A DNA stretch of 64,000 bases from a virus (lineage: Duplodnaviria > Caudoviricetes). This document shows positions 6,051-59,707 of the stretch, piece after piece. The position numbers and the translations under genes were made by a program. The stretch's first letter is position 1. Each line of letters starts with the position of its first letter. The notes below the pieces were generated by a model, which was not told where the DNA came from, made no database searches, and saw only the letters and a list, made by a program, of their open reading frames with translations. The DNA lies in the IMG/VR virus record IMGVR_UViG_3300043466_003828, positions 1,036 to 65,035 of that record; one strand, given 5' to 3'.

Positions 6051-6059
6051 TATATTCCT

Positions 6060-6245
6060 ATGAATGGAGAAGAAAAACTCAGTAATTGTAAATTCCGCTC
6101 ACAGGACGAGCAGGAAAGAGTTATTACAAGGTGTTCTTGCAGGGGTGGAAATTACACAGACAAAGGATTCATCTGTGAAAAAAGAGAAATCTTCAAAGTC
6201 ACGCAAGAAGTCTGTCAAGACTGCGGCGAATACGAGCCTAAATAA
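6060..6245 (+). CDS. Small Cys-rich protein
   Basis: 61 aa with 6 Cys (CKFR, CSC, ICE, CQDC), directly after a GTGTAAATA motif. Confidence 0.55.
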   Translation: MNGEEKLSNCKFRSQDEQERVITRCSCRGGNYTDKGFICEKREIFKVTQEVCQDCGEYEPK

Positions 6246-11094: not shown

Positions 11095-11534
11095 AAAACG
11101 TCTCTTTAGGAAAAAATGTCACAATACATCCATATACAAATATATATGGATGCCATATAGGAGATAATACAGCCGTGGGGCCATTTGTCGAAATACAAAG
11201 TAATGTTAAAATTGGCAAAAACTGCAAAATACAGTCGCATTCTTTTATTTGCGAAGGCGTTAAAATAAAAGATAATTGTTTTGTTGGTCACGGAGTAATA
11301 TTTTGCAATGATAAATTACCAAGAGCAACAGTTAATGGTAAGTTAAAAAGCAAAGATGACTGGACTCTAGACGAAACCATAGTTCAAAATGGCGCATCAA
11401 TAGGAAGCAACTCTACAATATTGGGCGGCATTACAATTGGCCAAAATTCACTAATCGGCGCAGGAAGCGTTGTTACTAAAAATATTCCATCCAATCAAAT
11501 TTGGGCGGGTAATCCAGCTAAATTTATAAAATAA
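11091..11534 (+). CDS. Hexapeptide-repeat N-acetyltransferase (WbpD/WlbB-like)
   Basis: Hexapeptide repeats, CKIQSHSFICEGV, NDKLPRA, IGAGSVVTK, AGNPAK. Confidence 0.85.
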   Translation: MKNVSLGKNVTIHPYTNIYGCHIGDNTAVGPFVEIQSNVKIGKNCKIQSHSFICEGVKIKDNCFVGHGVIFCNDKLPRATVNGKLKSKDDWTLDETIVQNGASIGSNSTILGGITIGQNSLIGAGSVVTKNIPSNQIWAGNPAKFIK

Positions 11535-11535
11535 T

Positions 11536-12630: not shown

Positions 12631-12657
12631 GTTTTTTTATTATTATCAATTATTTAT

Positions 12658-13521
12658 ATGAAAATATGGGGAACTAGATTCAGTCTAATTGGTGATATTA
12701 TAATGTCCTTGCCAATACTAGAGTATATTCACGAGCAGTATGGAGAATACTATTCGTATTTTTGCGTGGCACAAAAATGCCAACAGGCTATACCATTATT
12801 TCTTAATCAGCCATTGATTAATGAAATTAAAATAAGCGATCATTATGAAGATTTAGGCGATCTTGATAGAGAAATTATTTCTAAATGTGATTTAGCGCTC
12901 AACGTCAAGCCATCCGTTCCATTCGAGAAAAGTGGAATGCAAGACTGGTACAATTATAGGTCTTGTGTTGAAGAAGTCGCATTGATGGCCGGGTTTGATC
13001 CACATAACTTTACGAATAGGGTTCCAAAATTAATACAATACTGGGAAGATGATATAATCGCAAAAGATGACTCAAAACGTATTGTTATATGGCCATTTGC
13101 TGGATATGGGCAAGGAACACAAAGAAGCCCATCGGCAAGTTGGTGGCAAAAATGTGTTCATATATTAATAAATGACTTTAATTATAAAATAATTCATGCG
13201 GGGGTAGACTCTGAGCCCACAATAATAGATCACCCCAATTATACAAGAATTACATCCTTATCGTTTTTTAAGCAAATTCAAGAATCACTTAAATGCGATA
13301 TGGCAATAGGAACAGATTCTGGGTCGATGTGGGTTATTGGCGCATATTCCAAAATACCACAAATTAACCTATTAACAAACTGGTTTTTTTATCATCACAC
13401 GAATCCGCTAGCACTTGCTCCGGCTGGCAATAAAACTATTAATTTATTTGCACCAAACGGTTGTGATAACATTAGTATAAACGAATTAATACAAAAAATA
13501 AATGAAAATATTTGCATATAA
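12658..13521 (+). CDS. GT9-like glycosyltransferase
   Basis: SLIGDIIMSLP, WPFAGYG, IGTDSGSMWV. Confidence 0.7.
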   Translation: MKIWGTRFSLIGDIIMSLPILEYIHEQYGEYYSYFCVAQKCQQAIPLFLNQPLINEIKISDHYEDLGDLDREIISKCDLALNVKPSVPFEKSGMQDWYNYRSCVEEVALMAGFDPHNFTNRVPKLIQYWEDDIIAKDDSKRIVIWPFAGYGQGTQRSPSASWWQKCVHILINDFNYKIIHAGVDSEPTIIDHPNYTRITSLSFFKQIQESLKCDMAIGTDSGSMWVIGAYSKIPQINLLTNWFFYHHTNPLALAPAGNKTINLFAPNGCDNISINELIQKINENICI

Positions 13522-14521
13522 CGCACAATTAAACGATACTAAAGAATTTGGATCATTCACGGTTGTAGCGAGAAAATTAAACGAACAATTTAAAAAACTA
13601 AACGTATTAGGAGAAGAGAGCGATCCAGATACATTTGTTATTTTTCCCGAAGTTTTTGCTACAGAAAAAAGATGGAACAAACAAATTCCGCTTTTGGCTT
13701 GTGAATATAGCCTATCACCACAGATAGTTATTGATAAATTAAAAGCCTATAATCCACAAGTTTTGGCAATAAGTGATTTTGCAAAGAAAAACCTAATAAA
13801 TTCTGGATATGAAAAAGTAGAAACTGTTCACTTGGGCACCGACCCAGATACATGGCATAGAACTAAGCATGAAAAATTTCCTACATTTACATACTTAACT
13901 GTAAATAGTAGCAATGACCGAAGTGGATTTGAAAAACTCTTACCTGCATTTATTGAATTTAGCAAAGATAAAAATGTTAATCTAATAATTAAAGATGGGC
14001 AAAACAGCAGTTTTGAAAACTATATTAAATCATTAAATAATACAAATATAATATATATAGGGGGCATACTAGCTGAGGAGAAGCTACGAGAGCTATATAA
14101 TAGGTGTCATATATTTATATATGCAAACAATACCACTTCTTTTGGGATGAATATTTTAGACGCCGCATTATGCGAAATACCTATTATAGCCACATTAGGA
14201 TCCGCAGTAAAAGAATTTTTACCAGAATGGACACAACCCATCAAGATAAAAACCGAAATAAAAAAACTTGACGCACAATCCATACGGGAGTGGAATTCAA
14301 TTGGTATAAATAGTTTTCCAGAAAGTTTTTTATCAATATTTGGAGGAGATATATATGCAGAAAGGGTCATACAACAAGATATCTTTAACTCTCTAGAGTT
14401 TTCTTTTAAAAACTATCAGGACTATTGTATAATTTCTAAACAGTATAGAGATTTTGTTTTAGCGAATTATACTTGGGAAATTTGCGCAAAAAACATAGTC
14501 AATAAACTATCAAATTTATGA
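13502..14521 (+). CDS. GT4-like glycosyltransferase
   Basis: AISDFAK, VHLGTD, LRELYNRCHIF, SFGMNILDAALC, YTWE. Confidence 0.75.
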   Translation: MKIFAYNAQLNDTKEFGSFTVVARKLNEQFKKLNVLGEESDPDTFVIFPEVFATEKRWNKQIPLLACEYSLSPQIVIDKLKAYNPQVLAISDFAKKNLINSGYEKVETVHLGTDPDTWHRTKHEKFPTFTYLTVNSSNDRSGFEKLLPAFIEFSKDKNVNLIIKDGQNSSFENYIKSLNNTNIIYIGGILAEEKLRELYNRCHIFIYANNTTSFGMNILDAALCEIPIIATLGSAVKEFLPEWTQPIKIKTEIKKLDAQSIREWNSIGINSFPESFLSIFGGDIYAERVIQQDIFNSLEFSFKNYQDYCIISKQYRDFVLANYTWEICAKNIVNKLSNL

Positions 14522-14862
14522 TAAATCTTCAAGTAGACGAGGCCTATGCATTTGATTATCTTTCAATAATGGAAGTAAAAAAGAACCTTGCGCCCTCGCC
14601 ATTAAGGGCAGAAGGGTACGAAAAATGTCTTAATTTCCTGCGCGGTCAGGTATCAGATATCGATGCAATACTTTCCTCCCAAGAGTATAAAAAACTTTAT
14701 GAATCAAATGTTTATACGTTTGGTCTAGTAGATAAGGCAAGAAACAACCAACATGTATCAGCTAAAGAAGTAGATGATGCAAACATGGAAAGATTCCACT
14801 GTAAGCAAGCTTTGCAAAAATCATTTTTCTCTACAAACCTTGTAGAGACTAAGATACTATAA
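14518..14862 (+). CDS. Hypothetical protein in glycosylation cluster
   Basis: 114 aa, translationally coupled. VDEAYAFDYLSI motif. Confidence 0.6.
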   Translation: MINLQVDEAYAFDYLSIMEVKKNLAPSPLRAEGYEKCLNFLRGQVSDIDAILSSQEYKKLYESNVYTFGLVDKARNNQHVSAKEVDDANMERFHCKQALQKSFFSTNLVETKIL

Positions 14863-14864
14863 AT

Positions 14865-16037
14865 ATGAAATGGTTCTTAAATATAAATAACTTCTCAATA
14901 TTTGATAAAATCAAAATTTGCTTATTTTTACTAAACCCTAAAAATAGGTGGACTCAAGATAATCAAGTTAAGTTATTTGAGAAAAAGTTTGCGAAATTTG
15001 TTGGATCTAAGTATGCAGTATTTGTCTCTAGCGGATCAACGGCGAATACCTTAATCGCGCAATATTACAAAAGTATACAGAAAAATAATAATAAAAATAT
15101 CATAGTACTACCTTCTACTACATGGCAGACATCATGTGCGCCTTGGGTTCAGGCTGGTTTCGAGCCACATTTTATAGATATATCTATGACAGATTTTAGT
15201 ATAGATAAGATTAAACTTGAAGAATACGTTAAGAATAACCATGAAAAAATTGCCTGCATTTTCCCTACTTCTTTGATTGGATATGTTCCAGATATGCAGT
15301 TTTATTTAAATTTAAAAAACACATATAATGTTAAGATAGCCTTTGATAACTGCGAGAATACTCTCGGAACCTATAACAATAATAACATTTCTTCATTTTT
15401 TACTTCATCTACTTCTACGTATTTTGGGCATCAAGTTCAATCAATAGAAGGCGGATTTATTTTTACAAATTCAGATAAGGAATACCATTTTTATCTAATG
15501 AATAGAAACCACGGAATGACAAGAAGTCTTTCTGTATATGGAATTGATAATAGTAAATATATAAATAAAAAAGTTGACTCGCTATTTGATTTTTATTCTC
15601 TAGGAAATAATTTCAGAAATACAGACTTAAATGCATTTATTGGGCAATTAGATTTTAATAGAATTAATTTTTACACAACAAAAAGAAAAGAACTTTATTC
15701 TTACTTTAATCTAGATCCTACAAAATTTTACCTACCAAATCCAAATAGAAATAATGTAACTTCAGATGTTCCATTTTGCTTTCCCATAATTATAAAGGAC
15801 TCCAATACAGAGTTATTCAATAAAGCTCTGGAATTATGTAAAAAAAATGGTATTGAATATCGTCCAATCATTTCCGGATATTTAGGATATCAAACTTGTT
15901 ATAAAAAATTCTTTAAGTCCCAAAAGGACTATCCTAATTCTATCTATATCCATAAACATGGGTTTTATGTTGGCTTGCATTCCGGCGTAACAAAACAACA
16001 AATCATTAATTTTGTAGATAAATTAAACAATTTGTGA
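14865..16037 (+). CDS. PLP-dependent DegT-family enzyme, ColD-like (GDP-4-keto-6-deoxymannose 3-dehydratase type)
   Basis: VSSGSTAN, DNCE, STYFGHQVQSIEGG (no Lys in the Schiff-base loop), RNHGMTR, EYRPIISG. Confidence 0.75.
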   Translation: MKWFLNINNFSIFDKIKICLFLLNPKNRWTQDNQVKLFEKKFAKFVGSKYAVFVSSGSTANTLIAQYYKSIQKNNNKNIIVLPSTTWQTSCAPWVQAGFEPHFIDISMTDFSIDKIKLEEYVKNNHEKIACIFPTSLIGYVPDMQFYLNLKNTYNVKIAFDNCENTLGTYNNNNISSFFTSSTSTYFGHQVQSIEGGFIFTNSDKEYHFYLMNRNHGMTRSLSVYGIDNSKYINKKVDSLFDFYSLGNNFRNTDLNAFIGQLDFNRINFYTTKRKELYSYFNLDPTKFYLPNPNRNNVTSDVPFCFPIIIKDSNTELFNKALELCKKNGIEYRPIISGYLGYQTCYKKFFKSQKDYPNSIYIHKHGFYVGLHSGVTKQQIINFVDKLNNL

Positions 16038-16049
16038 TATAGTAAACAC

Positions 16050-16787
16050 ATGATAGAGAGGATTAAAAATTTACTAACGCCATATTATATAAATGATTTA
16101 AAAAGATATGGTGGAAATTCTGATGGGGGCTATATATTAAGCGAGTCTTTACTTAATAATTCTAATATCATATACTCTTATGGAGTTGGGCCAGAGGAGC
16201 ATTATATTAATTTTGACAAGCATATGTCGTTTTTAAATAAAAAGGTTTATTTATACGATGCATCAATAAATGGCCTTTGGGGAAATGATCCAAATTTCAT
16301 CTTTAAAAAAGAGTATGTTAACTCTAAAAACATACTAACCCATATAAGTGAGAATGGGCACTCCTCTGAAACGGAAATGGTTCTTAAAATGGATATTGAA
16401 GGAAATGAATTTGAAACTATTATTAATAGCGAATCAACACTGTTTAAATATTTTAATCAAATTACCATTGAAGTTCATGATATATTAAATTCACATGACG
16501 AAGCAAATTTGGTTATCAACAATGACAACGAAGAAAAAAGATGGCTCAATAAGATCAACTTGTTTGAAAAATTAAATACCTACTATAAATTAGTTCATAT
16601 TCATGGCAATAATTATTCTAGAGCAAAAACTAACGGAATTTGCGATGTAGTTGAATTAACTTACATTAGAAATGATACATTTAATAATGATCTGGAAATT
16701 TCAAAATTACAATGTCCAATTCCAGACTTAGATTTTCCCAATAACCCATACGATAATGATGTACAAATGAACTGGTGGATTAAATGA
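16050..16787 (+). CDS. FkbM/Methyltransf_22-like SAM methyltransferase
   Basis: RYGGNSDGGY, YSYGVG, LKMDIEGNE, IEVH, HIHGNN, ELTY. Confidence 0.8.
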   Translation: MIERIKNLLTPYYINDLKRYGGNSDGGYILSESLLNNSNIIYSYGVGPEEHYINFDKHMSFLNKKVYLYDASINGLWGNDPNFIFKKEYVNSKNILTHISENGHSSETEMVLKMDIEGNEFETIINSESTLFKYFNQITIEVHDILNSHDEANLVINNDNEEKRWLNKINLFEKLNTYYKLVHIHGNNYSRAKTNGICDVVELTYIRNDTFNNDLEISKLQCPIPDLDFPNNPYDNDVQMNWWIK

Positions 16788-33439: not shown

Positions 33440-35908
33440 TTAAGCAAAGCTCACAAATCCAGTTTCTATAGAAGTGGAAGTTAAATTTTTCAATAAGTAC
33501 TTTTGACTTTCAATATCTTTAGTGGCTTTTAAAAAGGCTAGACCCATTGAAGAATCCTCGGAAGCGGCCAGCCCATATGCATAACCACTATATTCTGTTA
33601 AAAATAGATTATCTATTATAAATGATAATTCTCCAGTAATTGATGATGGTATACCTCCAGACGCGAACCCACCAGAAGCAAAATTATTACTATATAAATA
33701 ACTTATGCCAGTGTTATATACAACAAGATCCGTGTGACTATTATAATATCCACCAGTGCTTAAAATTGAAATAGAATATGGGGTTCCACTTGGAATTAAA
33801 CCATTCCATACGTTACCAGAATTTACATTGCCATACTTATTTCCATATAATCTGTAAAAACTAGTACCAGTTAAATTTATAGATTGTTTTAAATAATCAT
33901 TAAATCCAGTTATTGCCAAGCCAGAACCAAAAGATATCCTCATGCCACTTGGAATGGCATTTTGCCTATTGTAACTCGTAACACCAGAATACGTGCCCTC
34001 ACCATAACTTGCGCTATAAGTTTTGCCGCTAACTACGTCATGATCAGATATAAATACTATTCTTTCGCCGCTACCAATACCAGTTTTTACGCATAGTACG
34101 CCATCTACTGCTCCAGAACAAAACCCATAATAATTATTTGGATATATATAAGCGCCAAAATCTAGTGCTCCATAGTTTTGAGAATTAATGTTATTAAATT
34201 GAGTAAGTAAATTAGAACTAAATAAGTTAAATACTTTTACCTTTCTTCGATTGTCAATATTATCAAATATATTATTACTATATATTTGCTCTACAACGCA
34301 GGCACGATTTCCAGAAGCACTAAGTATTGCCTTAAATGATAAATTATTATCACCAGTCACCGAACCTGAAATATCATAACCTAATTGCTGCCAATCTGGA
34401 TCTTGATATTTAAAAACTATAAATGGGTTTTGATTGGTGTTTATATCTGCAGCAACAATTGACAATTCTGCGCCACCAATTGACAATAAATCTCCATTTC
34501 TATTAAGCGAGATTCCACCAAAACCGAAAGTGCCACTAACTTTTTGTCCATAAATTGTTTTTCCTAACTGTTCCCAGTCAGATTGCAATTCATTATATTT
34601 AAATATTTTTAAAGCACCTGCAGCTGCTTTTCCAGTTTGTATTGTTATATCTGCCCCCGGATAGCTTATAGCTATTATATCACCAGAACCATTCATAGAT
34701 ATCGAAGTGCCACAGTACTCATTCTTTTTACCATAGAAAGTTTCACCCAAGTCTACCCATCTAGACCCCTTGTATTCATACGCTTTAGCATAGCCATCTT
34801 GCGGCAAAGAGTCTTGCAAAGAATACATTGACGAAAGTGGAGATGACACTATGATTCTGTCACCAATTGAATTAATAGCAGTTAAAAAAGTAGATTGAGC
34901 GTTTACTGCCCCTGTTATCACTTGACCTAATCTAACCCATTGATTGTTACCACTAAATTCATAAACACTGGCCTCTTGAGCAATACCACTCAAAAGATTA
35001 CTTGGGAAACCAGCTACAAAGCGATTACCAGACTCATTTAATGACACCGAAACTCCGCGATACTCGCTAGGAATTTGTCCAGAAATTGTTTGACCTATTT
35101 GATTCCAAGTATTTCCACTATAATTATACACTCTTACTGCACTAAAATTATTAATTCCACTTAAATTATTATAATTAGTACCTATCACTACTCTATCACC
35201 AGCACCATTCAGTGAAACAGTATTATTAGCAATAGATATCTCAAAAGGATTTCTTCCAGTAAAGAATTGCTGCCCAATAACTACCCCATCTATCTGCATA
35301 ATATCCATCGAATATACGAAACTCCTACCTCCAACTTTATTATCAATTGCATTACCCAAACGAGACCACTGCGCTCCACTATACTGGAAAATTTCTACTC
35401 TTTGGGTAGAATTAGGAGAATCACCACTGATGTTGCACACTGCAGCCACTCTGGATCCATCAGCATTGATTGATACACATTCAAATTCCACATCACGTAT
35501 ACCACTATTCAAAAAAATATCTTGATTTATTTTTTCTATAGCCTGTCTTTTTGTTACGTCCCAAGAACCATTATCATCATCCGTTGTTTTTAAGGAATTT
35601 GGTATCACAAATTTCTGATACTCACCATATTGCACTTCTGGCCCATACACGTATTCAGAAGAGTATAGAATATTAGAGCTATCTTGATTTAAAACAGAAA
35701 AAGCATAACCAGAGCTTGTTTCTACTAGAGAAATACTGGGAGTTGCCACGCCTTCATTGTCTATTAACTTGATTGAGTTTTTATTGCTAGCAAAATTTAA
35801 ATTATTATCGAAATAATTAGAATCAGAAAATAATTTAAGACCCTTTAATGCCGAAAGATATAAAGAATCTCCTAATTTTTTGTAAATTGTTTCTGTATTT
35901 AATGACAT
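33440..35908 (-). CDS. Putative virion surface protein with beta-propeller (FG-GAP-like) repeats
   Basis: Repeats of W.(Q/R)LG..I.G and S(L/I)N..G..(V/I), plus many SG/TG dipeptides. Confidence 0.7.
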   Translation of the reverse strand: MSLNTETIYKKLGDSLYLSALKGLKLFSDSNYFDNNLNFASNKNSIKLIDNEGVATPSISLVETSSGYAFSVLNQDSSNILYSSEYVYGPEVQYGEYQKFVIPNSLKTTDDDNGSWDVTKRQAIEKINQDIFLNSGIRDVEFECVSINADGSRVAAVCNISGDSPNSTQRVEIFQYSGAQWSRLGNAIDNKVGGRSFVYSMDIMQIDGVVIGQQFFTGRNPFEISIANNTVSLNGAGDRVVIGTNYNNLSGINNFSAVRVYNYSGNTWNQIGQTISGQIPSEYRGVSVSLNESGNRFVAGFPSNLLSGIAQEASVYEFSGNNQWVRLGQVITGAVNAQSTFLTAINSIGDRIIVSSPLSSMYSLQDSLPQDGYAKAYEYKGSRWVDLGETFYGKKNEYCGTSISMNGSGDIIAISYPGADITIQTGKAAAGALKIFKYNELQSDWEQLGKTIYGQKVSGTFGFGGISLNRNGDLLSIGGAELSIVAADINTNQNPFIVFKYQDPDWQQLGYDISGSVTGDNNLSFKAILSASGNRACVVEQIYSNNIFDNIDNRRKVKVFNLFSSNLLTQFNNINSQNYGALDFGAYIYPNNYYGFCSGAVDGVLCVKTGIGSGERIVFISDHDVVSGKTYSASYGEGTYSGVTSYNRQNAIPSGMRISFGSGLAITGFNDYLKQSINLTGTSFYRLYGNKYGNVNSGNVWNGLIPSGTPYSISILSTGGYYNSHTDLVVYNTGISYLYSNNFASGGFASGGIPSSITGELSFIIDNLFLTEYSGYAYGLAASEDSSMGLAFLKATKDIESQKYLLKNLTSTSIETGFVSFA

Positions 35909-35927
35909 ATTATTAAAATGTTAATTA

Positions 35928-36890
35928 TTACCAAGTGATAATACCAATCCCTCCAGCTTCCGATTCGTTGATGCCAGTAATTGGTTGACTAGTTTTTGGA
36001 GTGGATAACACGGAATAGAACATCTCGGCGTTGGAGTTGGCCCTGTTAACTACTATTTCCCAAAGATTTGGATCTGGGAAGTCTTTATAAACAGAACCCT
36101 CAAAATCTGGATTTAAACTCGTGGCCCATTCTGGTGCTGTTCCAGAGAATTGAACTGTTCCAGTAAGTGCAGGTAATCCAAGATGAGGGTACAGGTCTTC
36201 AACCCCACTAAAGAATACACTCACCACGTTTGGATAGACTACAGGCGTTGGCGTAGGTGGTGGCACTGCTATTGAAACTACTCCACTATTTAAAGGATTT
36301 AGCTCAAACTGTTCACCATATAAAGAAAATTTATGTCTTGCATCTATTTCAATTTTATTGTTTACATCCCTAACTCGTGATGAGTAAGTGTATAAATTAA
36401 AATTTCTTCCAGATCCTTTTGCCACGCCTAATAAAGCATTTACCCCAGCGCCAGTTAAAACTACCATTTCCGAGAAATAACCAGATGGCAGATCGGCATT
36501 TTGCCCAGTAGAATATTCATACCCATTATATTGAACTGACTGCCACAAGTCATTATATCCTAACTTTTTTAATTCATTTTTATCGTAAATAAAATTACCT
36601 GTTTCATTTGTAGCAACCAATTGGTTTTCAGTAGAAAGAATACCACTAAACGCTTGCTCACTATCAAAAAATGCTTGCTTGGATGTATATCTGCTAAAAC
36701 TAGGATATTTTACTATTATCGTTGGCGGTGCTTCTAATTGATTTGGGTCGTTATAAATTGATAACGATGGAACATTTTCAGCAGATGCGGAAAATACGTT
36801 ACTAAAGGAAGCTGCCTCAATTTTAGAAAACCTATTTAATAAATAGGATATTTTTGACTTTCCTGCTTGCTTGTTATTGTTGATATTCAT
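35928..36890 (-). CDS. Putative structural protein with Pro/Thr linker
   Basis: PPPTPTP linker, SG/TG-rich, in the structural operon. Confidence 0.55.
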   Translation of the reverse strand: MNINNNKQAGKSKISYLLNRFSKIEAASFSNVFSASAENVPSLSIYNDPNQLEAPPTIIVKYPSFSRYTSKQAFFDSEQAFSGILSTENQLVATNETGNFIYDKNELKKLGYNDLWQSVQYNGYEYSTGQNADLPSGYFSEMVVLTGAGVNALLGVAKGSGRNFNLYTYSSRVRDVNNKIEIDARHKFSLYGEQFELNPLNSGVVSIAVPPPTPTPVVYPNVVSVFFSGVEDLYPHLGLPALTGTVQFSGTAPEWATSLNPDFEGSVYKDFPDPNLWEIVVNRANSNAEMFYSVLSTPKTSQPITGINESEAGGIGIITW

Positions 36891-37447
36891 TATAGGTCAA
36901 TTTTTACAAGCGCATAACCATCTGTACCGACGGTGCTTAAAAATTTTCCAATTACAATAATACCATCCGTAGCAATTTTTCCATCGTTACCAGCGTATGC
37001 TGCGTCACCAACGTCTGGAAGGCCACCACCAGCACCACGGTCAGTAGTGTCAATATCATTTATTAAAACTAGTCCCTTTGTTAAAATTGGAACTGCCTGA
37101 TGTGGTAGCACGGCATCCATCTCGGCTAACTTTCTTTGATTAAAAATAAGCGGCTCGCCATTTTCATCCAACTCTCTTACGTCTTTTAATAAGATTCCCA
37201 TTGGTGCCGGAACTGTATTGTAAAGAGCGGTTGTCGTAACGTCTGCTACCACATCAAACCTAGCTGACAAGGAATTAGCAACTGGAGAAATATTTGTTGC
37301 ACTTTGAGAAACACCGCCATCCGTATTTTTCCAAGTGAATACAGGCGTTACCAATGTTCCCTTATTTACCGGAGACTGTCCAGAATACGAATATAGATTT
37401 ATAACATCATGTTCACTGTAGTCACGAAATGGTTTTAAATTTGGCAT
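36890..37447 (-). CDS. Putative capsid decoration/cement-like protein
   Basis: GILL.DV, AVPILTKG, GDAAY..DGKI, IGKFLS..DGYALVKIDL resemble head decoration proteins. Confidence 0.55.
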   Translation of the reverse strand: MPNLKPFRDYSEHDVINLYSYSGQSPVNKGTLVTPVFTWKNTDGGVSQSATNISPVANSLSARFDVVADVTTTALYNTVPAPMGILLKDVRELDENGEPLIFNQRKLAEMDAVLPHQAVPILTKGLVLINDIDTTDRGAGGGLPDVGDAAYAGNDGKIATDGIIVIGKFLSTVGTDGYALVKIDL

Positions 37448-37525
37448 AAAATCGAATAGTTATAAAGTATTTTACACTTTTTTATGGATTATTATCTAAT
37501 AATGGTTAAAATATTTTAACAACAC

Positions 37526-37963
37526 ATGACAATGGAAGACGAGCAGTTGGAGTTAGTTAACAATTTAATTGTAAATATTTTATTTTGTGCTACCCCAAAA
37601 TCTCCTGTTACTATTAGTAGAAATAAGAAAATTATAAAAAACGCATTTTATAATATATTTGGCTTATACATAAAAAATACTAGCCAATACGTAGTTTTTG
37701 TTAAGATATTCACTATTTCTAGCAGAAAATATAGCAATAATTCACATGTTAATATGAAACATAATGATACACTTGTTTTCGATACAAAAGAACAAGTTTT
37801 CTCCTATCTTTCCAGTTTTATAGCTGATATCGAAGAACACGAACGTTTTTTAAACGAAGATATCGTAAATAATGACAATATTACTGGCGCAAAGGCGGTC
37901 TTTTTAATGACCGAATGGCAAAAAATTATAACAGATTACTTTAATAAAAAAAGCAATTGGTGA
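37526..37963 (+). CDS. Hypothetical protein
   Basis: 145-aa ORF. Confidence 0.5.
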   Translation: MTMEDEQLELVNNLIVNILFCATPKSPVTISRNKKIIKNAFYNIFGLYIKNTSQYVVFVKIFTISSRKYSNNSHVNMKHNDTLVFDTKEQVFSYLSSFIADIEEHERFLNEDIVNNDNITGAKAVFLMTEWQKIITDYFNKKSNW

Positions 37964-37966
37964 AAA

Positions 37967-38311
37967 CTAGTTCTGCAAGCTAGCGTAACCCCAAATATTA
38001 TTACCACTTACGTTACTGTAAAGTCTAATGTGGCTTACTGGAGAATCCATAAACGCGGCTGGTGCATAACCAGAACTAACACTAGTAAACTCATATAAAT
38101 CAACACCTTCTGCAACGCCACCAATATCAAAAACTGGCGACCCACTTAAGGCTGTTCTTGTTTGAAGGTCAACAGGAACGATTCCGGTTCTGTTACCATA
38201 CACAACAAGCATAATATTTCTAGCAGCTGCAACGTTAACCCACTCACCAGTAAAAGGAGTGGCCTGTCCTGTTGCTAAACTTACTGTTCCGATAAATGAA
38301 GAAGCTGGCAT
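37967..38311 (-). CDS. Small putative virion protein
   Basis: Beta-rich. 6 of its 12 Gly lie in [ST]G. GTGTAATA motif just upstream. Confidence 0.55.
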   Translation of the reverse strand: MPASSFIGTVSLATGQATPFTGEWVNVAAARNIMLVVYGNRTGIVPVDLQTRTALSGSPVFDIGGVAEGVDLYEFTSVSSGYAPAAFMDSPVSHIRLYSNVSGNNIWGYASLQN

Positions 38312-38364
38312 ATATAAATATTACACACGATTTTGAAATTTACCTATAAATTCATATAATTTAT

Positions 38365-39576
38365 ATGAAAAAAGAAAATAATACTATTTTCATACAGATA
38401 GCCTCATATAGAGATCCAGAACTGCTTCCTACAATAAGAGATTGTATTAATAAGGCAAAATATCCAAATAATTTAACATTTGGAATTTGCTGGCAGAGAG
38501 ATGAGAGCGAATCATTAGAAGAATTTCAACAAGATAGCAGATTTAAAATCATAGATGTTCCTTGGAATGAAAGCAGGGGAGCGTGTTGGGCTAGAAGTTT
38601 AGTACAAAAACTTTGGAATGGCGAAAAATACACAATGCAGTTAGATTCTCATCACAGGTTTTTACAAGATTGGGATGTGGAACTTATTGAAATGATGAAA
38701 ATGACAGGATCAAAAAAACCAATTATTACATCATACGTTGGTATGTATAAACCAAGCACAAACGAACTTGTCAATATAGAACCATATAAAATGGTTGCGC
38801 AGCGATTTAATAGGGATGGACTAGTTTTATTTCTTCCGAATGTAATACCAAAATGGCAAAACTTATCTTCTCCAATTCCGGCTCGTTTTATAAGTGGACA
38901 TTTTTATTTTACCCTAGGCGAACATTGTATAGAGTGCAAATATGATCCCAACTTATATTTTCATGGAGAAGAAATCTCTTTAAGCGTACGATCCTATACA
39001 TCAGGATATGACTTATTTCATCCACATAAGACAATAATTTGGCACGAATACACTAGAGAGGGAAGAACAAAACATTGGGACGATTTTAACAATGAAAATC
39101 AAAAAATAGGAAAAATAAAAAATCAATGGTGGGAGACGGACGTTTTAAGTAAAAAAAGAGTTAGAAATTTATTTGGCCAAGAAGACAATCAAATAGACTC
39201 AGCAGAGTATGGATTTGGCGACACAAGAACTTTTAGCGATTATGAATTTTATGCTGGAATTCATTTTAAAAATCAAAAAGTTCATCCAGAGACCTTAGCT
39301 GGAAAAGATCCACCAATTAACGACGCTTCCGACTGGTTTAATATCGAAGAAAAATCTTATAACTTTAGTTTAGATATACCAAAAACAGATAATTTTAAAT
39401 TTATTTATATAGGAATTGAAGATATTAATGGAAAGCAAATATACAGAACAGATTTGAAAGAATATAAACCAAAAATAACATTAGAGTTTAAATCTTTCTC
39501 TGAGCCATACAAATGGATATATTGGCCAGTTGACAATAATGACAATTGGCATAACAGAAAAGATACTATCTTATGA
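38365..39576 (+). CDS. GT60-like (Skp1-type) polypeptide N-acetylglucosaminyltransferase
   Basis: TIFIQIASYRDPEL..TI, GACWARS, QLDSHHRF..WD, YDPNLYFHGEE, WHEY. Confidence 0.85.
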   Translation: MKKENNTIFIQIASYRDPELLPTIRDCINKAKYPNNLTFGICWQRDESESLEEFQQDSRFKIIDVPWNESRGACWARSLVQKLWNGEKYTMQLDSHHRFLQDWDVELIEMMKMTGSKKPIITSYVGMYKPSTNELVNIEPYKMVAQRFNRDGLVLFLPNVIPKWQNLSSPIPARFISGHFYFTLGEHCIECKYDPNLYFHGEEISLSVRSYTSGYDLFHPHKTIIWHEYTREGRTKHWDDFNNENQKIGKIKNQWWETDVLSKKRVRNLFGQEDNQIDSAEYGFGDTRTFSDYEFYAGIHFKNQKVHPETLAGKDPPINDASDWFNIEEKSYNFSLDIPKTDNFKFIYIGIEDINGKQIYRTDLKEYKPKITLEFKSFSEPYKWIYWPVDNNDNWHNRKDTIL

Positions 39577-54839: not shown

Positions 54840-57800
54840 TTACACTCCAAATCCTTTAAAATTCTTATCTAAATTTCCGCTATAATCCATTGCGGCAGTT
54901 GAGCATCTAAAATCTGGATGACGAAGATTTGAAAATAGTCCATGAAAATAAATTCGGTCGTTATTAAACGAGGCGTCGTAAACAAACATATTTGCAGAAC
55001 TTGATGATGTACCAAGCTCTTGATTATTCTGGAATGCAAATGTTTGGTTATCTATCACAAAATCATAATTAGTAAGATTATTTCCAGTTATTTTATCTTT
55101 TAAAGTAATAAAAGAATTTTGTGGAGAGGGCGAATTCATATGCCTATATTCCAACATGTCACCAAACTCCCCCACAGTTATTAACTCATCTCCATATGTC
55201 TTTATGTCCCATATTTGACCGGGGAACTGGTCTCCAAAACCAAATGGTGGACGTTCTCTAAATACGCTATTTGGGCCAGCCCCCCCATAATTTCTAATTA
55301 TATTACCACTTGTTAAACCTACTAAAAATACGCCTCTAGGACTATTACTATCTCCAGAACCTCCTACTGATACAAGGTCTCCTCCTACAAATAAACCACT
55401 TGGATGAAGATGTAAAGCTGTAATTCCGTCAGTACCAAGAACATTTCTAGTATTATACCAATAAGAAGTATTTACAGTATATCCAGAGAAAGGTCTGAAT
55501 GTTGTTAAGTGTGCAGCTGTATTTGTATCAAATGCAGCTACTCCTACATATGCACTAACTGGCGCCGCTCCAAATTGTGATGTTGTTCCAGCTGTGTATA
55601 TAGTATTTCCAGTAATAGCCATTTTTCTTAACACTCCATTAAGAATGCTTGGATTATATGACTCTAAAGCACCGCCAGAAGCCGCCGAAACGTCAAATCT
55701 GCAAATTCTGTTTCTACTCAAACCACTTACCGTAGTGAAGTCACCACAAGCAAACATCTTATTACCACTAAACTGTAAATCCCAAACATCAGCATTCATA
55801 TTTGGGTTCCAGCTATCTAACGTATTATCATTAAGATTAATTCTAGCAATTCTATTCCTTGCTGTTCCAAGTACAGATGTAAATGTTCCGCCAATATAAA
55901 GAAAATTATCTCTTCTTTTTATTGCAAAAACACTATTATTAACATTATAATCAATCCCTGAAATTCTCTGGTTATTTAAATCAAACCATGCCACTCTATT
56001 TCTTGTAACTGTTGACTCATTACTTGTTGTCGGAGACATATTTTGAACAAGTGTAAATTGTCCACCGATATACATAAATCCAGATTCCAAGAAACTAGAC
56101 AATATACCGCCATTCCGAGTACAACGTGGCGCTCCATTATTAATATTACCAGTAATAAGATTTCCAGAATCTAAGTTATAAGCAAGTTGATTTGCATAAG
56201 GCCTAAAATTTTCATTTCCAACTGATATACCCAAACTATTAAATGTTCCGTTGATATATGCATTATTATTATATATTTCTATAGTTCTACCAGCGCCTAC
56301 CTGATTAAGCATTAAACTCAAAACAGGGGTATCTAAAAGAGTGCCACTTTGAATACTGAACATCGCCATGCCGCCCCTTCTTTCTCCAGCATGCGCAAAA
56401 CTTCCACAAACTAAAACTCCAGATGGGGTTACCCTGATATTTGTAGGTTCTCTAGGTAATTTTGGATCCCATGCTAATAATCCAGTGTTATTTAAATTAA
56501 TTGCCGCGCCGAAGTTTCTTTCTTGACCCAAGACTCTTCTAAATGCCCCACCTATATACAATGTATTAGTACTTGTATCAATATCCATTGCCTTAACTTC
56601 ACGATCAAGGTTTAAATTAAAATTTGTAATTGCATTATTTTGCAAGTCTAAACAGAATAATCCATTTCTAATCAAACCGCTTACTGTACCAAAAGTGCCA
56701 CCAACATAGAGTCTGTCATTCTGTCTGCGCATGCACGAAATAACGGAATTAGAACTTGGCCCGGTTTTATTAGAATTAAAGCCAAAATTTTGAACTATTT
56801 CAAAATTTGTTCCATATCTCACTTGATTAGTATTTATATCAATACCAGCAAAAGACCTAATTCTATTTGGAACCGAACCAGAAACAAAATTTCCACCCAT
56901 AAATAGAACATTACCGCTTTTTTCTAAACATAAAATGTCGGTGTTAACGCCAAGATCAACATTGAAATTTGTAGTTAACCCACCAGTTCTCAAGTCTACA
57001 ATCGCCACAGAATTTCTAATACCCGTAGTAAGTGTTGGCGAGTTTAGGCTATTGAATCTACCACCAATTGCCAAAGTATTATCTCCAGTATCTAAGTGCA
57101 TAGACCAAATCCCCTGCGCAAGATTATTTGACGAATAATTACTTGTTGGCGCGCTAACCATTTGAATATTTGGATTCCAGTCTAGAATTCTATTTGTATT
57201 CAGATCTACAGCAAAAGCATTATTTCTTTTTATTTTTTCAATAAATCCACCATGACTTCTTCCAAAAATTAGCATGTTATTACCACGTTTTTGATAAGAA
57301 TCAAATAAAAATCCATTACTTCCATGATAGTAACTATTACCACCACAACCTTGACTTAATCCAGTGTGTATTGTCAGACCACTCACATTGTCTATAATGT
57401 AAGGTGGATTTACAGGATTATGATCATTTGCTATTAATGTTGGATTTGATGTTGAGTTATTAACTCTATATGTCCAAAGTCTGGACTGGTCAACCCTCAA
57501 ATCCACAATAACCTTATTTCCAAACTCATTTACATATCCGCACAACACCTGAGGTAAAATGGAATTTGGCCTGAATCCAGTCATTATTATTCCATTTTCA
57601 TAACCAACTCTACATAAAAATTGGTAATTGCCACCAGTTCCGCCTACGTTTGTAAAATCTCCACCAATGTAAAGGCCGCTTACACCGGTATTCATTGATC
57701 TAACAATTCCATTTAAGTTAGGATTAAATGGTAATAAAGTCATATCCGGAAATGTAACTGCGGCAATTCTATTCCTAGTAACCCCACCAACTGTGGTAAA

Positions 57801-58694
57801 AGTTCCATTAAAGTAAATTTTATTACCAGAACGTATCATGCTATAAATTTCACCATTTGGGCCAGCCGCAGAAGTAAATCCAGTAATTGCTGTACCGCTA
57901 ACATAATCTAAACAAACTATGCGGTTCCAACTCCCACCCGCCGCTGTTGTGAAATTTCCACAAACCCAAACGCCAGTTCTATTAGGATAAAAATTTCCAG
58001 TATCTACAAAATAATCGTTAGAATTTGAATTAGTGCTCGTGCTATTTGAAAAATTTTGAAACCAAGTTCTATCTGGAATTAAAGACCATCTATAATTATT
58101 TGCTGGATTTACTTCTAAGTTCATTTTAACTATAGATTGAGGATACAAACCAAATCCATAGTTACCACCATTAATGACACTATTGCCATTAAATACTTGA
58201 ATATTATTTCCATTGTGTTGGAAAAGAATTCCAGAACCAACCCATTTTAGTAGTCTAGTTGCGTTACCGCCTCCCAAACTCATCCCCAGTCCCGTATTAA
58301 CACCAGAAGGGGTAATTTGTATAAAACCCTCTCTACCACCAAGCATATTTGCTGGGGAAGTAGATATGGATCCATCTGGACGACAAACTTGCGAAATATT
58401 ATTAAAATTTCTAAAATTGCCACAAAAATACTTATTTCCATATGGATCCACTTCATAACCTACCTTGGTATAACCAATGCTATCTCCATAAATTTTAGCA
58501 TCTACATTTGCAGGATATATATTTAAATTTGGATCTATCTCAGCGAAAGGAGAGTAAACTTGGCAAAGCGAGTTAAAATTGCCTCCAAAATATAAAACAT
58601 TACCACTAATAGCTGATGCCAAAACTGGCCCATTTGGATATAAAAAGTTTTTTTCGTTAGTATCCTTATCTAAATTTGAAAACGGGAAAAACAT
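54840..58694 (-). CDS. Large multi-beta-propeller virion surface/receptor-binding protein
   Basis: Many (L/M)Y(I/V)GG.F blades with RN.IA and W(N/D)P motifs. SG/TG-rich. Confidence 0.75.
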   Translation of the reverse strand: MFFPFSNLDKDTNEKNFLYPNGPVLASAISGNVLYFGGNFNSLCQVYSPFAEIDPNLNIYPANVDAKIYGDSIGYTKVGYEVDPYGNKYFCGNFRNFNNISQVCRPDGSISTSPANMLGGREGFIQITPSGVNTGLGMSLGGGNATRLLKWVGSGILFQHNGNNIQVFNGNSVINGGNYGFGLYPQSIVKMNLEVNPANNYRWSLIPDRTWFQNFSNSTSTNSNSNDYFVDTGNFYPNRTGVWVCGNFTTAAGGSWNRIVCLDYVSGTAITGFTSAAGPNGEIYSMIRSGNKIYFNGTFTTVGGVTRNRIAAVTFPDMTLLPFNPNLNGIVRSMNTGVSGLYIGGDFTNVGGTGGNYQFLCRVGYENGIIMTGFRPNSILPQVLCGYVNEFGNKVIVDLRVDQSRLWTYRVNNSTSNPTLIANDHNPVNPPYIIDNVSGLTIHTGLSQGCGGNSYYHGSNGFLFDSYQKRGNNMLIFGRSHGGFIEKIKRNNAFAVDLNTNRILDWNPNIQMVSAPTSNYSSNNLAQGIWSMHLDTGDNTLAIGGRFNSLNSPTLTTGIRNSVAIVDLRTGGLTTNFNVDLGVNTDILCLEKSGNVLFMGGNFVSGSVPNRIRSFAGIDINTNQVRYGTNFEIVQNFGFNSNKTGPSSNSVISCMRRQNDRLYVGGTFGTVSGLIRNGLFCLDLQNNAITNFNLNLDREVKAMDIDTSTNTLYIGGAFRRVLGQERNFGAAINLNNTGLLAWDPKLPREPTNIRVTPSGVLVCGSFAHAGERRGGMAMFSIQSGTLLDTPVLSLMLNQVGAGRTIEIYNNNAYINGTFNSLGISVGNENFRPYANQLAYNLDSGNLITGNINNGAPRCTRNGGILSSFLESGFMYIGGQFTLVQNMSPTTSNESTVTRNRVAWFDLNNQRISGIDYNVNNSVFAIKRRDNFLYIGGTFTSVLGTARNRIARINLNDNTLDSWNPNMNADVWDLQFSGNKMFACGDFTTVSGLSRNRICRFDVSAASGGALESYNPSILNGVLRKMAITGNTIYTAGTTSQFGAAPVSAYVGVAAFDTNTAAHLTTFRPFSGYTVNTSYWYNTRNVLGTDGITALHLHPSGLFVGGDLVSVGGSGDSNSPRGVFLVGLTSGNIIRNYGGAGPNSVFRERPPFGFGDQFPGQIWDIKTYGDELITVGEFGDMLEYRHMNSPSPQNSFITLKDKITGNNLTNYDFVIDNQTFAFQNNQELGTSSSSANMFVYDASFNNDRIYFHGLFSNLRHPDFRCSTAAMDYSGNLDKNFKGFGV

Positions 58695-58696: not shown

Positions 58697-59707
58697 TTAG
58701 TTACTGAAGTCTTTAACATAAGTTGAATAAAAATTTGAACCAATTCTTAGTACTGTATAAATATCAACCCTGCTTTGTTGTAAAGTTAATGAAGGAGTTA
58801 CGCCGCCTGGGAACTTATATGCAAAATTAAATGCCATATTGTTGCTTCCACTAGGACTTTGTTGAATTTCAATAATAATACTATCTCCATTAACCATATT
58901 AATAGGCGCGTTTAGCGTTGCCGTGGCCCCAGCAACTCCAGTTAAAACATATTCAAAAACCCGTGCTTCATTTGCGTCTGGAGTAAAATTATTTCCAGTA
59001 AAAGATCTTATGTTTCTTAGAAAATAAACAGGTTGGCCACTAACTTGGGGCGTAGTCGTAAAGTTTTTAAGGCCACTGACTGTTTGATTACCTGTAGTAA
59101 ACATTATGTTACTAGATGAAGAATTTACATAGCCGCTTAGGTTGTTAATGTTAGTTTGTAGCGTAGAACCAGTAGAAGCGAGGTTGGCTGGAGTAGCCGC
59201 TTCACCACTTAAAACAACGCCTGTTTCGTTAACTAATAAACGCTGATTTGTTCTCCATTGGCCAGATAAAACTCTATCTGTCCAAACAAGAGTGGCATCG
59301 CTTAACCCTGTCGGACTTGCCGTATTACCCGCTGTTAGGTATCCTTTTTTAGTGATAAAACCTCCAGCACCAAAAACAATGCCGTATCCATAAGGAGATG
59401 GGGCCGTTCCTGCCCTATATATAACAGTCGATCCATTACCAGACTCTATAAATATTTTAGTACCTAAATCCGTTGCAAAAACTCCCGCGTTACCTAAATT
59501 TATAGTTTTACTACCTTCCGTATTTGTTATTGTGAGTGGGGTTGAATTGCCGCTTAAAACAGTTGCCCCAAGAAAAGTTTTATTTCCAGTGATGGTTTGA
59601 TCACCAGTCGTAAAAACAACTGATCCCGTAACTGGGACTGGTAGGTAACCAGTCAACTGAGACTTTAAAGCATACCTACATAAATCATCATAATTAGGTA
59701 GTGGCAT
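58697..59707 (-). CDS. Tail fibre-like protein
   Basis: Repeated FTTG(D/N)QT(I/V)(T/S)G.K.F fibre motif and a C-terminal beta-sandwich (YKFPGG..PSLT..DIYT). Confidence 0.7.
   Translation of the reverse strand: MPLPNYDDLCRYALKSQLTGYLPVPVTGSVVFTTGDQTITGNKTFLGATVLSGNSTPLTITNTEGSKTINLGNAGVFATDLGTKIFIESGNGSTVIYRAGTAPSPYGYGIVFGAGGFITKKGYLTAGNTASPTGLSDATLVWTDRVLSGQWRTNQRLLVNETGVVLSGEAATPANLASTGSTLQTNINNLSGYVNSSSSNIMFTTGNQTVSGLKNFTTTPQVSGQPVYFLRNIRSFTGNNFTPDANEARVFEYVLTGVAGATATLNAPINMVNGDSIIIEIQQSPSGSNNMAFNFAYKFPGGVTPSLTLQQSRVDIYTVLRIGSNFYSTYVKDFSN

Follow-up and report, generated by a model that had tools for sequence, protein, structure and literature searches.

Ser/Thr-Gly-rich fibre-like proteins and a GT60-like glycosyltransferase in a lineage of aquatic phages appear to be adjacent but separate phenomena

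The phage DNA analysed here, a window of 64,000 of the 65,035 bases of IMG/VR contig IMGVR_UViG_3300043466_003828 (CheckV completeness about 38%), encodes on its minus strand a set of fibre-like proteins rich in Ser-Gly and Thr-Gly dipeptides ([ST]G) and, next to them on the plus strand, a glycosyltransferase (GT) of the GT60 type (38365-39576, Table 1). The original prediction had joined the two, taking [ST]G for the sequon at which the GT60-like enzyme starts a glycan on the neighbouring virion proteins. On balance, and with modest confidence, we favour two separate phenomena that lie side by side: a [ST]G trait of a phage lineage, and a GT60-like enzyme that is likelier to act on Thr-Pro linkers. 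The [ST]G excess would be a selected, GT60-independent trait of distal-tail and fibre-like proteins in a broad lineage of aquatic phages, with its sites at inter-strand beta-turns where relatives outside the lineage have Asp-Gly or Asn-Gly. The GT60-like gene would be a sporadically carried one, encoding a soluble GT-A enzyme of the GT60/GT27 polypeptide-transferase type that would add N-acetylhexosamine (HexNAc) to Thr (or Ser) in mucin-like (Thr-Pro)n linkers, and not to [ST]G. The acceptor, the donor sugar and glycosylation itself are proposed here from sequence statistics, gene distribution and a predicted fold.

Ser/Thr-Gly is in excess in the minus-strand proteins

Open reading frames (ORFs) were called mechanically, as the longest non-overlapping frames, and the [ST]G count of each protein was compared with composition-preserving shuffles (2000 for the window proteins, 300-2000 across the whole study). 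The abundance of Ser-Gly and Thr-Gly noticed by eye in the minus-strand virion-type proteins was confirmed: six of the seven proteins showed an excess (z 2.3 to 5.8), five of them at z 3.0-5.8, and the reversed dipeptide, G[ST], stood at expectation in all seven (z -0.8 to 0.2). The hand counts made for the original prediction proved exact (18 of 37 Gly after Ser or Thr and 8 G[ST] in the protein of 336 amino acids (aa); 6 of 12 Gly in that of 114 aa). When the seven proteins were pooled, the observed/expected ratio (o/e) was 2.14 for Ser-Gly and 1.73 for Thr-Gly, and 0.77 and 0.76 for Asp-Gly and Asn-Gly, respectively; in the 81 other window ORFs, it was 1.33 for Ser-Gly and 1.30 for Thr-Gly. 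The statement that the cytoplasmic enzymes are free of the bias holds broadly, except for two plus-strand ORFs at z of about 4 (41582-42004, and the adenylylsulfate (APS) kinase at 51254-51808). The excess of the kinase (6 [ST]G against 1.3 expected) probably comes from its nucleotide-binding loop.

An origin of the bias in a DNA word was rejected, as both AGY and TCN Ser codons precede Gly (AGT 131, TCT 127, AGC 53, TCA 36); the use of both codon families places the bias at the protein level. The surroundings of the sites are poor in charged residues and favour hydrophobic ones at -1 and +2/+3. In the enriched proteins of the window and of two relatives described below (G002 and G003), Thr before Gly is encoded by ACT in 219 of 321 cases, compared with 379 of 971 elsewhere, and the Gly that follows an ACT-coded Thr prefers GGA, which is a codon-pair bias.

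The excess follows a phage lineage and not the GT60-like gene

A search with the 822-aa protein retrieved G001 (140.5 kb) and G002 (154.4 kb), relatives whose genomes are complete and have terminal repeats, and in which 66 and 65, respectively, of 84 window ORFs were matched at about 72% identity. G002 carries an intact GT60 gene, 70% identical to that of the window and in the syntenic place. In G001, the gene is reduced to a stump, with ~40 codons from its start surviving in a frame of 59. Three [ST]G-rich genes lie beside the GT60 site, and between G001 and G002 they are 97%, 100% and 100% identical, indicating that the loss of GT60 in G001 is recent and was tolerated. The stump of this natural knock-out (L014 8341-8454, corresponding to about 103175-103291 of G001) is 82% identical to the window's gene, and the genome is otherwise complete and syntenic.

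The extreme [ST]G proteins of G001 and G002 are encoded after the tape-measure gene. In G002, they include proteins of 1495 aa (96 [ST]G against 30 expected, z 14.8; 63% of 153 Gly), 1305 aa (68 against 24, z 10.5) and 714 aa (42 against 13.5, z 9.1), and in G001 a protein of 645 aa (57 against 18, z 11.4). In neither genome does [ST]G exceed expectation in the tape measure, the large terminase or the head-module genes near them. PHROGs gave names to 2 of 10 structural-module proteins of G002, and to almost none of the GT60 neighbours in a second phage lineage that is considered below.

A more distant relative, G003 (133.8 kb, terminal repeats), shares 53-57 of its 173 ORFs at about 39% identity. 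PF11397 has no match in this complete genome, and yet eleven of its ORFs reach z >= 3 (3.2 to 6.6), nine of them longer than 200 aa; examples are a protein of 964 aa (51 against 24, z 6.6), two of 611 aa and 759 aa (both z 5.3) and two of 1360 aa and 2791 aa (both z 4.3). Conversely, G017 (116 kb, 55% complete) has a GT60 gene, 44% identical, but among its ORFs longer than 300 aa there is one outlier of 407 aa (6 against 1.5, z 3.9), and the others lie at z -1.7 to 2.9. PF11397 was found in 2 of 49 searched records with a homologue of the 425-aa protein and in 1 of 35 with a GT9-like gene, the latter representing the [ST]G-rich lineage; many of these records are fragments, which makes some absences uncertain, whereas G003, G056 and G086 are estimated to be complete. 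Around 79 GT60 loci, that of G002 left out, the pooled o/e of [ST]G was 1.26 and the median best z 2.68, compared with 1.23 and 2.33 around 77 control loci, which had been picked by two other genes and not randomly.

The comparison of relatives with and without GT60, proposed along with the original prediction, thus found the trait in the GT60-free G003 and in G001 with its stump, and missed it, bar one ORF, in the GT60-bearing G017. Together with the 35 lineage records and the 79 loci, this contradicts the idea of [ST]G as the GT60 sequon, as the enrichment does not co-vary with the enzyme. None of the relatives compared is fully GT-free, so another enzyme could still use [ST]G.

In three pairs of proteins at about 52% identity, 34 of 41, 32 of 44 and 14 of 17 [ST]G sites were kept, compared with 26/65, 40/71 and 15/31 for other Ser/Thr hydroxyls and 9/16, 22/34 and 10/15 for other Gly. 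Where a site was lost, Ser/Thr and Gly had usually gone together. Clearly, [ST]G is conserved as a unit, and it is a trait of a broad aquatic-phage lineage.

Loci L100, L101 and L103 have a 181-aa ORF (L100 4750-) with 17 [ST]G against 2.7 expected (z 9-10); the 425-aa structural protein is all that these phages have in common with the window. Neither a GT9-like gene nor PF11397 was matched in record G041, which is only 41% complete.

The excess is not generic to fibres or beta-turns

A generic fibre or beta-turn cause was rejected, as neither T4 fibres nor FG-GAP_2 homologues of the 822-aa protein have the excess. The o/e of [ST]G was 0.56-1.30 in T4 gp34, gp35, gp36, gp37, gp12 and wac (gp34 1.02, gp37 1.12), 0.56-1.67 in T4 fibre and baseplate proteins, with no z above 1.9, and 1.09 in large proteins of five other phage contigs. 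In the lineage itself, the other large ORFs (>= 450 aa) of the same phages, including tape measure, large terminase and head-module genes, showed neither a [ST]G nor an [ND]G effect (o/e 1.00 and 1.02). Gly was preceded by Ser or Thr in 41-48% of cases in the enriched sets, a value somewhat inflated by the choice of these sets by z, and in 14-18% in the control sets.

Homologue controls were taken from IMG/VR contigs and metagenome proteins because matches to isolated phages were scarce: the region had none at the DNA level, tblastn of the 822-aa and 336-aa proteins found no isolated phage, and that of the 1284-aa protein found two Leptospira phages only. Thirty FG-GAP_2 homologues from metagenomes and bacteria (P0123-P0152), 26-37% identical over local alignments, served as distant controls of the fold. 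They are enriched in [ND]G (z up to 6.1) and often in G[ST], but not in [ST]G (z -2.0 to 3.5). Among 317 alignments of a window [ST]G site with a homologue that retains its Gly, the residue before that Gly in the homologue is Asp 86, Asn 60, Ser 59 and Thr 23 times; in the reverse direction, homologue [ND]G sites with Gly kept in the window read Ser-Gly 128, Thr-Gly 18, Asp-Gly 25 and Asn-Gly 16 times. In the AlphaFold2 (AF2) model of the 822-aa protein, which is confident for residues ~125-565 only, all 17 [ST]G sites of the confident part are predicted at turns: inter-strand loops account for 13, another 3 occupy the final position of a strand, and the remaining one closes a short helix. Taken together, the turn positions and the alignment suggest that these Gly are the usual turn glycines of the fold, and that the lineage has put Ser or Thr before them. 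However, a plain replacement of Asn/Asp with Ser/Thr was rejected as insufficient, as the four residues together precede 51-57% of Gly, compared with 33% in T4 fibres.

Thr-Pro-rich segments lie next to GT60-like genes

Genes for products with (Thr-Pro)n or Thr-x-Thr-Pro runs accompany the GT60-like gene across phages. A PT-rich segment was defined, by a criterion of our own, as a run of 10 residues in which Ser, Thr and Pro make up no fewer than 8, including a minimum of 3 Pro and 4 Ser/Thr. Among 80 GT60 loci, the best of at least 590, 59 contained such segments (373 segments, 26.8 per 100 kb), compared with 7 of 75 (0.61 per 100 kb) and 7 of 78 (0.71) in two control sets, where most segments were weak. 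G+C content is lower around GT60 than in the controls, but the contrast holds within the 30-40% band (47/64 against 7/47 and 7/57). Of the 59 loci, 35 had their nearest PT gene less than 500 bp from GT60, and 48 had it within 2 kb; altogether, 53 of 110 PT genes lay within 1 kb of GT60, and 59 of 60 near PT genes were on the GT60 strand. When the loci were reduced to 33 GT60 clusters at 75% identity, a PT gene was present within 2 kb in 18 and within 10 kb in 23, and the 18 neighbours formed 15 groups without detectable mutual similarity. Ten PT neighbours were scanned with Pfam; three had an adhesin-type domain (InlB B-repeat-like, ConA-like lectin and PA14) and seven had none. In G002, with its intact GT60 gene, a Thr-Pro linker lies near the N-terminus of the 1495-aa fibre, while G001, with the stump, has no PT segment.

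Thr/Pro-rich mucin-like sequences are the substrates of the characterised GT60 and GT27 enzymes of eukaryotes. Combined with the adjacency of GT60-like genes to (Thr-Pro)n-coding genes, this points to PT linkers as the likelier acceptor.

The GT60-like enzyme resembles polypeptide glycosyltransferases

The GT60-like identity assigned to the 38365-39576 product was borne out, and the gene lies divergent from the 114-aa gene, with the ORFs at the coordinates first given for them. The PF11397 match scores 240 bits against a curated cut-off of 21 and falls into two stretches (profile 1-44 and 95-350), which places the protein in PF11397/CAZy GT60; the predicted fold is GT-A with a DxH motif, and D94-S95-H96 was invariant in 27 sequences. 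No hydrophobic segment was found in the protein, indicating that it is soluble. The AF2 model (predicted local distance difference test (pLDDT) 79.5, predicted template modelling score (pTM) 0.74) ends in a small C-terminal beta domain (residues ~330-402). When it was compared with the PDB, all 31 matches listed down to rank 43 were polypeptide N-acetylgalactosamine (GalNAc)-transferases (E 1.4e-11 to 1.1e-8), and L. monocytogenes RmlT came first at rank 44. A sequence search of the PDB gave a chance match only, with no solved GT27 chain at E<=1. The protein thus falls outside GT27: there is no sequence match, the C-terminal domain has ~75 residues, and the likeness is one of fold only.

The characterised polypeptide alpha-N-acetylglucosamine (GlcNAc)-transferases of CAZy GT60, which use UDP-GlcNAc to modify Thr, Ser or hydroxyproline hydroxyls, include Dictyostelium Gnt1/GnT2 and Trypanosoma cruzi pp-GlcNAcT. 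The phage enzyme is like CAZy GT60 in its strong PF11397 match and in the predicted GT-A fold with DxH, and, as with the eukaryotic mucin-type GT60 enzymes, its gene is associated, by neighbourhood only, with Thr/Pro-rich mucin-like sequences. Unlike eukaryotic GT60, it is soluble, without a membrane anchor, has the ~75-residue C-terminal beta domain and leaves profile positions 45-94 unmatched, and neither a Skp1 nor a prolyl-hydroxylase partner was seen with it. GT27 enzymes use a DxH metal motif, and human GalNAc-T1/T2/T4 and other GT27 members, which share this type of motif, were the best structural matches of the model. However, sequence identity to GT27 is 11-15%, a ricin-type lectin domain of normal size is lacking, and the TM-scores reach only 0.44-0.51 over the whole chain, with a root-mean-square deviation of 12-15 Å. 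Judging from the model, a role of the 38365-39576 product in phage-encoded protein O-glycosylation is plausible.

The family is very common. Among 8000 candidates scored, at least 7271 protein clusters matched at E<=1e-10, many of them 63-78% identical, and at least 590 IMG/VR stretches encode a GT60-like relative. Four isolated phages carry the gene, all of them Xanthomonas or Stenotrophomonas jumbo phages. From one lineage to another, its neighbours are entirely different, which suggests that the gene moves as a cassette. In XacN1 (L019, 213159-232505), the GT60 homologue is followed by a 765-aa carbamoyltransferase gene; within 9 kb there are also a GT9-family gene and the end of the gene for a 3313-aa protein, a further grouping of GT60 and GT9 genes with a giant protein. 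In L256, an 8.4-kb record labelled as a giant-virus metagenome-assembled genome, a PF11397 relative shares 55% identity with the enzyme of the window; either the family can pass between phages and protist viruses, or the bin may be mislabelled.

A GT9-like gene accompanies the [ST]G-rich fibre genes

Of the GT9/GT17/GT4 cluster first described in the window, the GT17-like and GT4-like genes are present, but GT9 is undetectable there. In G001, G002 and G003, a 390-aa GT9-like gene follows a gene of ~640 aa beside the [ST]G-rich fibre genes. Its PF01075 match (E 2.4e-14) covers profile 105-238 only, which is the C-terminal half, and a profile of 28 GT9-like homologues matches WaaF residues 241-345 (E 1.6e-6); TibC gave no match to this profile at E<=1. 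A single-protein search for the gene found G001 and G002 only, while an alignment-based search found 78 further loci at 26-51% identity. An ORF at z>=4 lay within 10 kb in 54 of these 78 loci, compared with 4 of 77 controls, and the median best z was 6.45 (up to ~15) compared with 2.33; in one locus, a 2916-aa protein has 144 [ST]G against 56 expected.

When the trait is placed on a tree built from the GT9-like proteins, all major clades have it, two subclades are mostly without it, and at least 10 state changes are needed. The trait-poor contigs G069, G070 and G071 (54-81% complete) keep the GT9-like pair, although their large proteins have no excess; the exceptions are one 138-aa and one 851-aa ORF at z 3-4. 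Conversely, G046 has one protein at z 3.7 and no GT9-like gene. As the two trait-poor subclades keep the pair, its co-occurrence with [ST]G may reflect common descent only, and the gene is at best necessary, not sufficient, for the trait. A contrast of gene content between trait-bearing genomes and G069-G071, G017 and G046 is limited by the trait-free contigs, which are partial and without a tail module.

In its gene context, the pair is comparable to autotransporter heptosyltransferases (TibC/Aah), in that a GT9-type gene of the relatives lies beside very large beta-rich adhesin-like proteins with candidate Ser sites. TibC heptosylates TibA at Ser-313, which stands in NSGG, and at a second site in TSAA; the passages of PMC4358343 on these mapped sites name no Thr. 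Unlike TibC/Aah, only the C-terminal, nucleotide-sugar half is GT9-like here, Thr is as frequent as Ser, and the gene can be present where [ST]G-rich proteins are missing. No [ST]G excess was seen in Ag43 of E. coli K-12, but this protein is a weak control, as K-12 is without such a heptosyltransferase.

Alternative explanations

We consider it very improbable that [ST]G is the sequon of the GT60-like enzyme, starting a glycan on neighbouring virion proteins. The divergent adjacency to the 114-aa [ST]G-rich gene and the polypeptide-transferase-like fold would fit such a role, as would the second phage lineage, in which the GT60 gene lies among large PKD/SprB proteins with a modest [ST]G excess, but the trait is found where GT60 is missing (G003) or lost (G001), is mostly missing where GT60 is present (G017), and is accompanied by GT60 in 1 of 35 searched lineage records, with no difference to speak of in pooled o/e (1.26 and 1.23). 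For [ST]G, a lineage-specific choice of turn residue would be the leading reading, with the sequon of another enzyme as the live alternative. That the dipeptide is unmodified, a turn motif serving folding or durability, for example by avoiding Asn-Gly deamidation or Asp-Gly isomerisation, is a tentative reading to which we give somewhat less than an even chance. Asn-Gly is labile through deamidation. The sites at inter-strand turns where homologues use Asp/Asn-Gly, the [ND]G values below expectation in the enriched proteins (o/e 0.64-0.77), and a trait that follows descent and is tracked cleanly by no enzyme argue for it. It has to accommodate, however, that the [ND]G depletion is mild (604 remain in set B), that [ST]G rises beyond replacement, that other large ORFs of the same phages show neither effect, and that Thr, no classic turn former, is enriched like Ser. 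A sequon of another enzyme of the lineage, the GT9-like protein with its 640-aa partner being the best, heptosyltransferase-like candidate, strikes us as rather doubtful. It would explain why the pair adjoins [ST]G-rich fibre genes in G001-G003 and in most GT9-like loci, why sites are conserved as a unit with Asp/Asn replaced and Thr as enriched as Ser, and why the bias is spread over unrelated folds and yet restricted to distal-tail proteins; the TibA site in NSGG (PMC4358343) offers a precedent. Opposed to it are G069-G071, which keep the pair and, two ORFs aside, have no [ST]G-rich proteins, the minimum of 10 state changes, a match to ~100 residues of WaaF and none to TibC, which modified Ser and not Thr, Ag43 without an excess, and the z 3.7 protein of G046.

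Several observations weigh against the two separate phenomena that we favour. In the enriched sets, Thr and Ser are enriched before Gly to the same extent, every other residue is depleted there, and the sites are spread over unrelated folds, which fits a sequon at least as well as a turn preference. An ORF at z>=4 was found in 19 of 79 GT60 loci compared with 4 of 77 controls, mostly due to a single 737-aa family. On the side of the linkers, the 80 GT60 loci were the best of at least 590, and the PT criterion, the ORF calling and the control sets were our own choices; the GT60-adjacent PT proteins look adhesin- or fibre-like, but only three of ten have a Pfam domain, and their location in the virion is putative. 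The window contains no PT-rich segment by the criterion, and its GT60-like gene is flanked by the opposite-strand 114-aa [ST]G-rich gene and a small peptidase-like gene; likewise, no PT segment lies within 10 kb at the G002 locus or in 21 of the 80 loci. The nearest stretch in the window, PPPTPTP at residues ~209-218 of the 320-aa protein, 1.5 kb from the GT60-like gene, falls below the criterion. By analogy with G002, the main fibres of this phage would be encoded in the missing ~62% of its genome. It is also conceivable, but unlikely, that the GT60-like enzyme acts on a host protein, the cell envelope or phage DNA instead of virion proteins. Its gene is co-oriented with early or metabolic-looking genes in the window, the copies in XacN1 and RAS14 lie near DNA polymerase and RNase H and beside the carbamoyltransferase, the family is highly conserved over thousands of variants (63-78% identity), and DNA-glycosylating phage GT-A enzymes exist (bioRxiv 10.1101/2023.12.21.572611). 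The DNA GT-A enzymes of Pyle et al. in that preprint, however, have R...DDD...EDY/F motifs and resemble JGT and TarP, whereas the window enzyme has DSH and resembles GT27; no TET/JBP or hydroxymethylase was found among the window ORFs scanned, many small ORFs being outside the scan; and the tight, co-oriented adjacency of PT linkers argues for a phage-encoded protein acceptor. The most far-reaching idea, which we hold to be improbable, is that aquatic phages have two O-glycosylation systems, the GT60-like enzyme on (Thr-Pro)n and the GT9-like/640-aa pair on [ST]G at turns, giving sugar-coated fibres, with nucleotide-sugar genes and APS kinase supplying unusual and possibly sulfated sugars. In fibres of 1000-3000 residues, [ST]G makes up as much as 63% of the glycine contexts.

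Gene content of the window

The window has a G+C content of 31-38%. Its plus strand encodes, by Pfam, ribonucleotide reductase, DnaB, primase, dCMP deaminase, ClpP, a PHP protein, an exonuclease and Pol III alpha; ThyX, a MazG-like protein and APS kinase are further plus-strand genes. Fibre-like proteins are encoded in two minus-strand islands (33440-38311 and 54840-60998). The features discussed are collected in Table 1.

Table 1. Features of the window (positions are those of the 64,000-base stretch; [ST]G as observed/expected counts)
Coordinates	Strand	Length (aa)	Assignment	[ST]G	z
213..1301	+	362	Putative GT-B-like protein; weak PF00534 match, E 0.006		
4986..16787	+		Nucleotide-sugar/glycosyltransferase cluster; Pfam matches		
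33440..35908	-	822	Central FG-GAP_2-like beta-propeller	36/15.7	5.8
35928..36890	-	320		11/3.8	4.1
36890..37447	-	185	Cement/decoration-like; weak Phage_cement match, E 0.002	1/2.4	
37967..38311	-	114	Divergent from the GT60-like gene; 12 Gly	6/2.2	3.0
38365..39576	+	403	GT60-like glycosyltransferase, soluble, GT-A; PF11397 E 6.2e-71, phrog_24687 E 1e-109		
54840..58694	-	1284	DUF5122-repeat beta-propeller; PF17164, phrog_5490	39/23.3	3.7
58697..59707	-	336	Fibre-like; BppL_N baseplate-attachment motif, PF18338 E 2e-9	18/8.3	4.0
59721..60998	-	425	Virion structural protein; phrog_1645 E 2e-137	13/7.5	2.3

The products of 33440-38311 are putative virion proteins, a status suggested by the weak cement-protein match and by their likeness to post-tape-measure tail proteins of the relatives; for most other proteins of this study, the virion status was likewise assigned by inference. 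Homologues of the 822-aa protein carry PF14312. The 185-aa protein is a paralogue of a head-module gene of G002 and G003. In this lineage, the cement/decoration-like gene occurs in two copies per genome, one in the head module and one elsewhere (G002 824-1381 and 104060-104596), and in the window, the second copy (36890-37447) lies inside the accessory fibre island. All six [ST]G sites of the 114-aa protein are kept in its G002 orthologue (75% identity), and the protein weakly resembles (28-30%) one domain of the 714-aa tail protein that G001 and G002 encode after the tape measure. A homologue of the 1284-aa protein, 60% identical, adjoins the GT9-like module in L196, L197 and L201.

The phrog_1645-type protein of 425 aa occurs in 177 phage records, mostly of cyanophages, and its homologues in 77 loci have similarly mild [ST]G values, i.e., the mild excess is family-wide. 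It is 60-65% identical to counterparts in the T4-like cyanophages S-RIM8, S-RIM12 and S-WAM2 and in the podovirus HMO-2011 (Puniceispirillum phage). As the rest of the genome (Pol III alpha, DnaB, ClpP) is unlike those phages, the protein looks like a widely exchanged virion module.

The 4986..16787 cluster contains genes for GDP-mannose 4,6-dehydratase, a GT17-like protein, a GFO/IDH/MocA oxidoreductase, a hexapeptide acetyltransferase and a DegT aminotransferase, followed in our list by a GT4-like protein, a second DegT and an FkbM-type methyltransferase; a RecA-like gene is interspersed. The oxidoreductase, acetyltransferase and aminotransferase genes are consecutive (10120-12630, plus strand), an order that we take to correspond to the WbpB/WbpD/WbpE steps toward 2,3-diacetamido sugars. 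By this analogy, the trio suggests that an unusual amino sugar may be made during infection. The APS kinase gene (51254-51808, plus strand) has a PF01583 match at E 2e-43 and a P-loop. APS kinase makes 3'-phosphoadenylylsulfate (PAPS), the sulfotransferase donor. No sulfotransferase was recognised near it; the adjoining ORFs of 249 aa and 345 aa (52817-54584) have no Pfam match.

Homologues of the 213..1301 product are present in 22 loci, GT9-like loci included, and the gene is syntenic with G002. Because its homologue lies ~4 kb from the GT9-like pair in relatives, the 640-aa and GT9-like genes and the [ST]G-rich fibre genes of this phage would fall past the left end of the contig. The replicative polymerase is apparently split into PHP-domain, exonuclease and Pol III alpha genes (22283-26185, plus strand), which are 92% identical to their counterparts in G001 and G002 and 40% to those of G003.

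Implications for phage biology

To our knowledge, a few mycobacteriophages are the only phages whose particles have been established to be glycosylated. The literature searched contained no paper linking GT60/PF11397 to phages or to Thr-Pro linkers, and no report on [ST]G in fibres or on virion glycosylation in this lineage; the passages on glycosylation in a marine phage proteomics paper (PMC12014285) concern animal viruses. In mycobacteriophages, C-terminal parts of capsid and tail-tube subunits were shown experimentally to be glycosylated (Freeman et al. 2023, as described in passages of PMC12619734 and PMC12801897). The proposal made here is similar in that, according to the same passages, phage glycosyltransferases are proposed or shown to decorate the structural proteins of their own phage. 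It differs in its candidate acceptors, which are Thr-Pro linkers of fibre- or adhesin-like proteins, and in an enzyme of the GT60 type, both proposed from sequence.

The Thr-Pro reading thus keeps the idea of protein O-glycosylation by the phage but changes the sequon; the window itself contains no such linker. Among the dipeptide biases that we have met in any protein class, the [ST]G excess is one of the strongest, with 96 sites in one fibre where 30 would be expected. Whether sequon or chemical adaptation, it is a record of a selective pressure on phage fibres that is undescribed in the literature searched. If the GT60-like enzyme does decorate Thr-Pro linkers, this very common family would mark a widespread mucin-type modification of phage adhesins, and such a modification, if true, would bear on host recognition, on the stickiness of the particles and on their persistence in water.

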